This document shows, one piece after another, positions 36,988 to 39,411 of a DNA stretch of 64,000 bases (its first letter is position 1; the number at the start of each line of letters is the position of its first letter). Both the position numbers and the translations under genes were made by a program. The notes under the pieces were generated by a model, which had not been told where the DNA came from, searched no databases, and worked only from the letters and a program-made list of their open reading frames with translations. The DNA is from Escherichia coli (GTDB lineage: Bacteria; Pseudomonadota; Gammaproteobacteria; Enterobacterales; Enterobacteriaceae): the NCBI RefSeq assembly GCF_003334405.1, contig NZ_QOWM01000003.1; one strand, written 5' to 3'.

Positions 36988-38196
36988 GTGAAACGATTAC
37001 AGGCATTTAAATTCCAGTTAAGACCCGGTGGTCAACAGGAGTGTGAAATGAGGCGCTTCGCAGGCGCATGTCGTTTCGTTTTCAATCGTGCTCTGGCACG
37101 TCAGAATGAGAATCATGAGGCCGGTAATAAATACATCCCTTACGGGAAAATGGCTTCCTGGCTGGTTGAGTGGAAAAATGCCACTGAAACGCAATGGCTT
37201 AAAGATTCTCCCTCACAGCCATTGCAACAGTCACTGAAAGACCTTGAGCGGGCTTACAAAAACTTCTTCCGGAAGCGGGCTGCTTTTCCCCGATTCAAAA
37301 AGCGGGGACAGAATGATGCATTCCGCTACCCGCAGGGCGTTAAGCTCGATCAGGAAAACAGCCGTATTTTTCTGCCGAAACTGGGCTGGATGCGCTACCG
37401 GAACAGCCGTCAGGTCACGGGTGTTGTGAAAAATGTCACTGTCAGCCAGTCCTGCGGTAAGTGGTACATCAGTATTCAGACAGAAAGTGAAGTATCAACT
37501 CCGGTTCACCCTTCAGCATCAATGGTCGGGCTGGATGCTGGCGTGGCTAAACTCGCCACGCTGTCAGATGGCACAGTCTTTGAGCCTGTAAACAGTTTTC
37601 AGAAAAACCAGAAGAAGCTGGCGAGACTTCAGCGACAGTTAAGCCGCAAGGTCAAATTCAGCAACAACTGGCAAAAGCAGAAACGCAAAATACAGCGACT
37701 GCATTCCTGTATCGCAAATATCCGCAGGGACTACCTTCACAAAGTCACAACGGCCGTCAGCAAAAACCACGCAATGATAGTCATTGAGGATTTGAAGGTC
37801 AGCAACATGTCAAAGTCAGCAGCGGGTACGGTCAGCCAGCCGGGGCGCAATGTCCGGGCAAAATCAGGTTTAAACCGTTCGATACTGGATCAGGGCTGGT
37901 ATGAAATGCGCCGCCAGCTTGCGTACAAGCAGCTCTGGCGTGGCGGTCAGGTGCTTGCTGTTCCGCCAGCGTATACAAGCCAGCGTTGCGCGTACTGTGG
38001 TCATACAGCGAAAGAGAACCGCCTGTCACAAAGTAAATTCAGATGCCAGGTATGTGGATATACAGCGAACGCCGATGTAAATGGCGCTCGCAACATTTTA
38101 GCGGCGGGGCACGCCGTTCTTGCCTGTGGAGAGATGGTGCAGTCAGGCCGCCCGTTGAAGCAGGAACCCACCGAAATGATTCAGGCGACAGCCTGA
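36988..38196 (+). CDS. insQ: TnpB (OMEGA-type RNA-guided nuclease family) of the IS609-like element
   Basis: N-terminus [12 protein letters not shown]; RuvC-I VGLDAGV, Ruv[11 protein letters not shown], zinc finger CAYCGH...CQVCGY, Ruv[16 protein letters not shown] start at 36988 (internal ATG at 37048 is an alternative). Confidence 0.85.
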
Positions 38197-38235
38197 ACGT
38201 AGCAGGGATCCACGTCCTTCAGGGCGTGGAGGATG

Positions 38236-39411
38236 TCAATATCGGTTTCTGTCAGCGATTAAATTCAACACCACGTAACAAACGCCTCCGGCAATTAATC
38301 CCCAAAACGCAGAACCAATCCCGACCAGCGTCAATCCACTTGCCGTTACCAGAAATGCCACCACCGCCGCGTCTCGCTCACGCTCATTATGCAGCGCCTG
38401 ATACAAACTGCCGCCGATGGTACTTAACAGCGCCAGACCTGCCAGCATCTGGATCCAACTTACGGGCAGGGCAGCCATCATCCCGGTAATGGCACTACCA
38501 AACAGACCTGCGAGCAAATAGAAAATGCCTGCAACGGCAGCGGCCAGCCAACGTTGATCTTTATCCGGATGCGCTTCCGGGCTTTGGCAAATAGCCGCGG
38601 TGATTGCCGCAATACCGACGGAATAAACGCCGAAAGGGGAAAAAACCAGTGCCAGCAATCCAGTAAATACAATTAATGGCGAAACAGGAGCCGAATATCC
38701 AGCTGCTTTCATTGCTGCGATACCCGGTGCGTTTTGCGATGCCATCGTCACCAGAAAAAGGGGGAGTGCAACGCTCAGGCTGTGAGCAAACGAAAAATCA
38801 GGGGTAATATAAGTGGGGAGAACGGGTTTAAAGACAACATCAGTTGTGACAACGTCACCTTGCGCGATGACGATCACGATCCCAATAATCATCGCGGCAA
38901 TTACCGCATAGCGCGGCGCAACGGCCTTGGTTGCCAGCCATACCAGCAACATACTTCCACACAACGTAAATTGACCGTCCAGACTGGCAAACGCCTGTAA
39001 ACCAAAGCGTAATAAAATCCCGGCAAGCATTGCCGCCGCAAGCGAGTGCGGAATAATGCGCATCAGACGAGCAAAGAGTCCCGTTATGCCGCAGAGGACT
39101 ATTAGCGCGTTGGTGACAATAAAAACGCCGATGGCTTCGTTAAGTGTTAGTCCCTGCAATCCGGTGACCAACAAAGCCGCGCCAGGCGTTGACCATGCGG
39201 TGAGAACAGGTACGCGATACCATAATGTCAGAGTCAGCGTACTGACGCCCATTGCCAGCCCCAGCGCCGTCATCCAGCCAGAGATTTGTGCAGTGGTGGC
39301 TCCGGCGACAATCGCTGCTTGCCAGATTATTGCCGCTGAACTGGCGTAGCCAATTAATACCGCCAGAAACCCCGCCAGTAGCGTGGGTGGAGGAATAGAA
39401 AACAGACGCAT
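38236..39411 (-). CDS. ydcO: BenE-family (benzoate transporter-like) inner-membrane protein
   Basis: 391 aa from the internal ATG at 39411 (MRLFSIPPPTLLAGF...); the longer track ORF is rejected. Confidence 0.8.
   Translation of the reverse strand: MRLFSIPPPTLLAGFLAVLIGYASSAAIIWQAAIVAGATTAQISGWMTALGLAMGVSTLTLTLWYRVPVLTAWSTPGAALLVTGLQGLTLNEAIGVFIVTNALIVLCGITGLFARLMRIIPHSLAAAMLAGILLRFGLQAFASLDGQFTLCGSMLLVWLATKAVAPRYAVIAAMIIGIVIVIAQGDVVTTDVVFKPVLPTYITPDFSFAHSLSVALPLFLVTMASQNAPGIAAMKAAGYSAPVSPLIVFTGLLALVFSPFGVYSVGIAAITAAICQSPEAHPDKDQRWLAAAVAGIFYLLAGLFGSAITGMMAALPVSWIQMLAGLALLSTIGGSLYQALHNERERDAAVVAFLVTASGLTLVGIGSAFWGLIAGGVCYVVLNLIADRNRY

Follow-up and report, generated by a model that had tools for sequence, protein, structure and literature searches.

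An IS609 copy in the ydcO stop codon of Escherichia coli K-12 with an apparently competent TnpB, an omega-RNA-like scaffold and a predicted flank-derived guide

We analysed a 64,000-nucleotide stretch of the Escherichia coli contig NZ_QOWM01000003.1 (hereafter the window), in which an earlier note, made from the letters alone, had pointed to an apparently intact TnpB nuclease gene with a candidate omega-RNA at its 3′ end. Sequence comparison shows that the region around this gene matches, with 100% identity, E. coli K-12 chromosomes in which it is annotated as ydcL, tnpA (a pseudogene), insQ ('RNA-guided endonuclease InsQ/TnpB family protein', WP_000826416.1) and ydcO. It is the single K-12 copy of IS609, an element of the IS200/IS605 family, lying between ydcL and ydcO. 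We consider it likely that this IS609 copy, inserted in the ydcO stop codon, encodes a competent TnpB and an omega-RNA whose guide is read from the flanking DNA. The borders of the element, the TnpB motifs, a covarying RNA structure, the target-adjacent motif (TAM), the dead tnpA and the integrity of tnpB across strains support this directly; transcription, RNA processing, nuclease activity and a biological role of the K-12 system we infer by analogy.

The gene and its kind, an RNA-guided endonuclease, are already known and annotated in RefSeq, and omega-RNAs at the 3′ ends of tnpB genes are established; the finding as stated is ordinary, and its novelty is low. Only three points are mildly new: the corrected coordinates, an RNA core resembling RAGATH-18 in an element with a Y1 transposase, and the different fates of tnpB and tnpA at a locus that is polymorphic. 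Only the last of these was unexpected: the nuclease gene has stayed intact from one E. coli strain to another, whereas its partner transposase gene has been broken several separate times. Among open-access PMC papers and bioRxiv preprints we found no study of the native K-12 insQ/IS609 TnpB system; in the literature found, insQ is used only as a terminus marker or appears among candidates for positive selection.

Borders of the element, target motif and predicted guide

The borders of IS609 can be read from an unoccupied allele of the locus in E. coli strain EC19, where GGCGCTTTTTAT is followed directly by TATCGGTTTCTGTCAGCG. In the occupied K-12 allele, GGCGCTTTTTAT is followed by the element, which begins with CCGGTGCG and ends with GGATGTCAA, and then by TATCGGTTTCTG. 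At the junction itself, TTTTTAT and TATCGG are adjacent in the empty allele and separated by the element in the occupied one, showing an insertion 3′ of TTAT without target duplication. The element therefore spans 1748 bp, from 36492 to 38239 on the plus strand. A second IS609 copy, found in O157 strains within a TetR-family gene near ytfB, has ends identical to those of the K-12 copy and is also preceded by TTTAT; its tnpA is intact and carries the RefSeq label 'IS200/IS605-like element IS609 family transposase'. The sequences of 43 related elements from other bacteria are alike only as far as (G)GATGTCAA, and what follows downstream is unrelated. Both the empty-site comparison and these 43 relatives, which end at GGATGTCAA, move the right end from 38232, where it had been placed before, to 38239, 7 nt further.

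The motif TTAT (36488–36491 on the plus strand; TTTAT with position 36487) abuts the left end, and the left ends of close relatives are preceded by TTAT or TTAC. An 'IS609' TnpB purified in a 2026 study (PMC12781874) was likewise used with TTAT as its TAM. DNA folds give subterminal hairpins at both ends of the element. The left one (36497–36538, plus strand; DNA fold and sequence reading) is imperfect and carries in its loop the same motif, TCCTTCAGGG, as the right one (38209–38230, plus strand; DNA fold and covariation), which would serve both as the last helix of the omega-RNA and as the recognition structure of TnpA in DNA. The right-end hairpin is followed by a nearly invariant tail, AGGATGTCAA, whose A takes part in the closing pair, leaving GGATGTCAA (38231–38239) unpaired. 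Insertion 3′ of a short target motif, with no target duplication or terminal inverted repeats, and subterminal hairpins at both ends are as expected of an IS200/IS605 element.

Since the element ends at 38239, the guide would start at 38240. We predict a 16-nt guide, possibly of up to 20 nt, at 38240–38255 on the plus strand, with the sequence TATCGGTTTCTGTCAG, counted from the first flank base after the right end; the length of 16 nt is the one known for ISDra2 TnpB. The position given in the earlier note, 38233–38250, takes in seven bases of the scaffold (ATGTCAA) and had to be corrected, because a guide carrying these bases would not match the target. That the guide region is antisense to the last codons of ydcO holds: the predicted guide covers the last five sense codons, and its sequence is invariant in the 13 occupied alleles described below. 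IS609 also split the ydcO stop codon, the end of the gene reading CGA TAA in the empty allele and CGA TAT TGA in K-12, with one C-terminal Tyr gained (38236–38239 with 38240–38241). The present stop codon, TGA at 38236–38238 on the minus strand, comes from the right end of the element, and the annotated ydcO is 1173 nt long in empty alleles and 1176 nt in some occupied ones.

Within the 64-kb window, the only match to the TAM plus guide is the occupied junction itself, with two mismatches in the TAM. A match to TTAT plus guide is present in all four empty alleles read, two of which (L096 and L097) differ at target position 14, the column of window position 38253. These changes, C to G and C to T, alter an Asp codon in the YdcO tail; they may be ordinary variation, or they may let the target partly escape the guide.

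The nuclease and its omega-RNA-like scaffold

The tnpB gene, insQ, runs from 36988 to 38196 on the plus strand as an intact reading frame of 402 codons with a GTG start. Its product has the domain order of a TnpB, with a Pfam HTH_OrfB_IS605 domain at residues 1–48, an OrfB_IS605 (RuvC) domain at 162–277 and a Cas12f1-like TNB zinc ribbon at 304–370. It scores 379.8 bits against the NCBIfam model NF040570 (guided_TnpB; cut-off 100) and 306.8 bits against the narrower 'exception' model IS200_TnpB, under that model's cut-off of 425. Residues 3–376 match the structures of ISDra2 TnpB (8BF8, 8EXA and 8H1J) with E = 2e-54, and D183, E267 and D363 align with its RuvC triad D191, E278 and D361. Thus all three RuvC motifs are kept, with no residue disrupted on alignment, and so is the CxxC...CxxC zinc finger (Cys334, 337, 353 and 356), both as claimed before. 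The 20-codon longer N-terminus proposed from GTG 36988 is also borne out: it is the RefSeq start of WP_000826416.1, the relatives align from residue 1 and have their start codon at the same position (ATG in 35 of 38 loci), and the additional codons belong to the protein because HTH_OrfB_IS605 covers residues 1–48. This start leaves the noted 7 bp (36981–36987) to the divergent tnpA, whose ATG lies at 36980. By every feature that its sequence allows to be tested, InsQ is a member of the TnpB family, and apparently a full-length, catalytically competent RNA-guided DNA endonuclease.

A possible −10 box, TATCAT, is found at 36975–36980 on the plus strand. In most relatives (25 nt upstream examined, loci L004–L078) the box is a conserved TATAAT some 7 nt before the tnpB start codon, which would point to a tnpB mRNA with a short leader or none. 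The E. coli form TATCAT also creates a tnpA ATG; the relatives imply a tnpA start five codons further downstream.

For the RNA work we collected 80 related loci of 58–94% protein identity from Enterobacterales, Burkholderiales and other bacteria. Aligned with MAFFT, the final 190 nt of 44 elements show conserved blocks and visible compensatory changes, and RNAalifold run on this alignment gives four helices, with both sides changed in 15 of 25 pairs. The helix S3 was missed at this step, because variable loops are misaligned in the raw MAFFT alignment, and was recovered with a gapless seed alignment and a covariance model. The scaffold, located by alignment, covariation, model search and third-codon-position constraint, extends from an approximate 5′ end at 38095 to 38239 on the plus strand and has five helices, supported by pair counts. 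S1 pairs 38101–38106 with 38112–38117; the outer part of S2 pairs 38123–38127 with 38160–38164, and its inner part 38131–38133 and 38136–38138 with 38147–38149 and 38151–38153; S3 (38176–38186 with 38191–38200) contains the tnpB stop codon at 38194–38196; and S4 (38209–38217 with 38222–38230) is the right-end hairpin.

Defined by hand on the gapless alignment of 18 sequences, the five-helix structure pairs in 95.7% of cells, compared with 37–56% when the partners are slid by one to three columns. The covariance model has one full-length match in the window, at 38085–38239 with 179 bits, and it matches the tnpB 3′ end in 79 of the 80 related loci. Across 81 model-aligned matches, 95.3% of cells pair, both sides are changed in 27 of 36 pairs, and the covariation score is 0.40, compared with 0.05–0.11 in slid controls and 0.14 in shuffles; this alignment was fitted to the model and is biased to the modelled structure, whereas the MAFFT results are independent of it. 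The covariation of S4 alone cannot separate roles in DNA and RNA, because S4 is also the DNA hairpin recognised by TnpA; that of S1–S3 can. S1 and S2 lie wholly within the coding tail of tnpB, where the amino-acid sequence varies and the pairing is kept.

The coding sequence itself carries a further trace of the scaffold. Among 18 Enterobacterales copies, the entropy at third codon positions, about 1.1 before this point, drops to 0.57 at 38095 and reaches 0.3 at 38125–38184, which places a strongly constrained scaffold at about 38095–38239. The single-sequence fold is more stable than its shuffles (minimum-free-energy z = −2.56), and only 3 of 145 scaffold positions vary in the 13 occupied alleles. 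A possible pseudoknot between AACAU (38092–38096) and AUGU in the tail (38233–36) pairs in 95–99% of sequences; because the tail is nearly invariant and the changes on the 5′ side are synonymous transitions, this figure speaks neither for nor against it. We take these comparisons as good support for an omega-RNA-like scaffold encoded by the 3′ end of tnpB together with the right end, as expected of a TnpB system, although what they attest is conservation of structure, not production of an RNA. The placing of an omega-RNA at the tnpB 3′ end in the earlier note is thus upheld by covariation in 81 relatives and by helices in the coding tail, but not its span of 38050–38232, as strong constraint begins at about 38095 and the scaffold ends at 38239. 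In substance, the earlier interpretation is supported: the TnpB of this IS200/IS605 element is intact, its omega-RNA would come from the 3′ end of tnpB and the right end, and its guide would be read from the flank.

Third-position variability dips again inside tnpB, at 37720–37800 (entropy about 0.5 versus about 1.1), around the RuvC-II residue Glu267; a promoter-like site on the minus strand, at 37802–37774, lies by this dip. In a metagenome-assembled genome of Hahellaceae, the scaffold model has a further, weak match of 27.7 bits (L027, 3842–3971) some 1.1 kb beyond the main element on its downstream side, possibly a solo right end or the remains of a guide RNA.

Searched at a permissive threshold, Rfam returns RAGATH-18 (25.4 bits, gathering threshold 44.9), HgcC (22.2, threshold 50) and sot0042 (15.5, threshold 88); all are below gathering and are resemblances rather than memberships. 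The matches do point to RNA families associated with the 3′ ends of tnpB genes; sot0042 is a sense-overlapping transcript of archaeal IS1341-type tnpB genes. The resemblance to RAGATH-18 resides in S2 (38123–38164), which carries the closing helix and the conserved flanks, CCUGUGGAG ... UGAAGCAGGAA, of that RNA, with bases invariant across the relatives. According to PMC11061315, RAGATH-18 forms the core of the guide RNA of IS607 TnpB, accompanies no other kind of TnpB and is situated outside the open reading frame. IS609 differs from the RAGATH-18 guide RNA in its score, in having a Y1 (IS200/IS605) rather than a serine transposase, and in an RNA that overlaps the coding sequence.

Compared with ISDra2 TnpB of Deinococcus radiodurans, InsQ is alike in domain order and length (402 versus 408 amino acids), in the D/E/D triad and in the zinc finger; the two systems are also alike in an RNA overlapping the tnpB 3′ end and the right end, in a guide formed by the 3′ flank and in a TAM that is the left target motif. 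ISDra2 TnpB reportedly works with such an omega-RNA. The TAM itself differs, being TTGAT in ISDra2 and TTAT in IS609. Further differences are the divergent arrangement of tnpA and tnpB in IS609, with its 7-bp gap, and an insertion of about 15 amino acids after RuvC-II in InsQ. The IS609 TnpB orthologue of PMC12781874 (Nucleic Acids Research, 2026) comes from an element of the same name and has the same TAM; its sequence differs from that of the K-12 protein, and it was tested for trans-cleavage only, in a screen.

Decay of tnpA beside an intact tnpB

The partner gene has fared differently. The tnpA (insP) pseudogene occupies 36549–36980 on the minus strand and aligns without gaps to tnpA of O157, showing a change from TTA to TGA that turns Leu96 into a stop at codon 96 of 143 (36693–36695; 'internal stop' in the RefSeq note) and the loss of the normal stop codon (36551). 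In IS608 TnpA, the catalytic tyrosine lies near the C-terminus. The K-12 copy thus lacks a functional Y1 (HUH) transposase and, because of the stop at codon 96, is a non-autonomous member of the IS200/IS605 family; with tnpA a pseudogene and only a single copy, it should be immobile. The death of tnpA in K-12, which the earlier note did not mention, changes what the nuclease can do there.

Among 5,426 complete E. coli genomes, the ydcL–ydcO locus is occupied in about 3,252 (~60%) and empty in 2,044 (~38%), the latter carrying the exact predicted target. We compared 13 occupied alleles, K-12 and 12 others (loci L084–L095) that are 98.4–99.9% identical, a small sample. In all 13, tnpB is an intact reading frame of 402 codons with no insertion or deletion and with every catalytic residue kept. 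In the same 13 alleles tnpA is always a pseudogene, through at least five different lesions, and its stop codon at 36551 is lost throughout. The lesions, counted by eye rather than on a tree, are L96 to stop, Y76 to stop, E62 to stop, a 5-bp deletion, a 1-bp deletion and, in one strain, four 1-bp insertions. Were small disruptive lesions spread according to gene length, five independent ones would all strike the 432-nt tnpA, and spare the 1209-nt tnpB, with a probability of 0.263^5, or about 0.001. Within the locus, the ratio of nonsynonymous to synonymous polymorphism (pN/pS) of tnpB is about 0.33, an estimate from only 30 variable codons (13 synonymous and 17 nonsynonymous). In genomes of ST131 (H23/H24), insQ is kept in a copy from which the left end and most of tnpA are missing.

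What the nuclease may do without its transposase

If InsQ works as ISDra2 and Geobacillus TnpB do, the tnpB transcript would, in its 3′ part and the right end (about 38095–38239), fold into the omega-RNA scaffold, which TnpB would bind and process from its own mRNA, the next 16–20 nt of flank, from 38240, serving as the guide. The complex would then recognise and cut DNA in which TTAT is followed by TATCGGTTTCTGTCAG. This combination exists only where the element is absent, either at the donor joint left by excision or in an unoccupied ydcL–ydcO allele; if the cut empty site were then repaired with an occupied copy as template, the element would be restored or spread. The occupied locus would be protected from self-targeting, because GTCAA replaces the TAM there. 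TnpB is said to bring about transposon retention in IS605/IS608-type elements, a mode called 'peel-and-paste, cut-and-copy'. IS609 is like these elements in that its predicted target is the scarless donor joint or unoccupied allele and in that its occupied site has no TAM, and unlike them in that tnpA is dead in every sampled ydcL–ydcO allele and excision, the very event that the nuclease would offset, is not expected without a helper copy. In K-12, with a nonsense tnpA pseudogene and no second copy, excision should not occur, and the only natural target would therefore be an unoccupied allele arriving by horizontal transfer.

Several observations weigh against a working system. A consensus scan flagged no plus-strand sigma-70 promoter, the −10-like box included, and that box is weakened in E. 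coli IS609. In the open-access and bioRxiv literature we found no transcript, processing or cleavage data for the K-12 copy. With tnpA dead and one copy present, the canonical retention role is without a substrate in K-12. The inner part of S2 has one A–C mismatch in K-12 (38132/38152), which is repaired in some alleles. The 13 alleles came from full-length, single-piece matches, so that large disruptions were left out, and one genome (H1, NZ_CP146681.1) does carry an IS3-family element inside insQ. To these may be added the small basis of the pN/pS estimate and the fitting of the 81-sequence alignment to its own model.

Some of the same observations would suit an inert relic, a dead transposon whose tnpB has merely not decayed yet and whose protein and RNA are idle in E. 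coli today. The tnpA pseudogene and single K-12 copy, the unflagged promoter with its degraded box, the 17 nonsynonymous changes among 30 variable tnpB codons and the existence of a genome with a disrupted insQ all point that way. Yet a gene drifting alongside tnpA would hardly escape the at least five independent small disruptive lesions that the shorter gene has taken, and the pN/pS below 1 and the catalytic residues kept in 13 of 13 alleles also speak against idleness; we regard a relic as unlikely. A host-domesticated TnpB, with protein and RNA co-opted for RNA-guided regulation or defence rather than for maintenance of the transposon, as in the origins of TldR and Cas12, appears more improbable still, to the point where we give it very little credence. 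In its favour are the persistence of tnpB in the absence of tnpA, at one set place in the chromosomes of about 60% of E. coli genomes, and a guide that, like any read-through transcript, is antisense to the ydcO 3′ end. TldR proteins, nuclease-dead repressors derived from TnpB (PMC10705468), likewise show a tnpB-type gene kept without a working transposase, but they have an inactivated RuvC site; in InsQ the triad and the full C-terminus are intact, so that domestication of the TldR type is not supported. InsQ is instead full-length as is typical of mobile copies, 97–98% identical in DNA to the O157 copy with its live tnpA, and accompanied by a guide that is the plain, unmodified insertion flank, with no TAM-flanked match in the window; the locus is not a core function, since it is absent from 38% of genomes.

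Beyond the competent, flank-guided TnpB system that we favour, the contrast between the two genes raises a more tentative idea, which we consider possible although rather doubtful: that selection keeps TnpB functional at ydcL–ydcO without TnpA, as a flank-guided allele-level drive or addiction module. If so, the nuclease would cut the unoccupied allele during DNA exchange between strains, and the occupied allele would resist replacement or convert the empty one.

For the native system of the most tractable bacterium, the analysis provides exact coordinates, namely an element at 36492–38239, the TAM TTAT and a predicted guide from 38240, with a natural target that is a common, naturally occurring allele. 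Should selection indeed act in this way, K-12 would be a ready model for TnpB function without TnpA. As tnpB stays intact while tnpA decays repeatedly, the question of what preserves tnpB genes once their transposase is lost becomes directly testable in MG1655.

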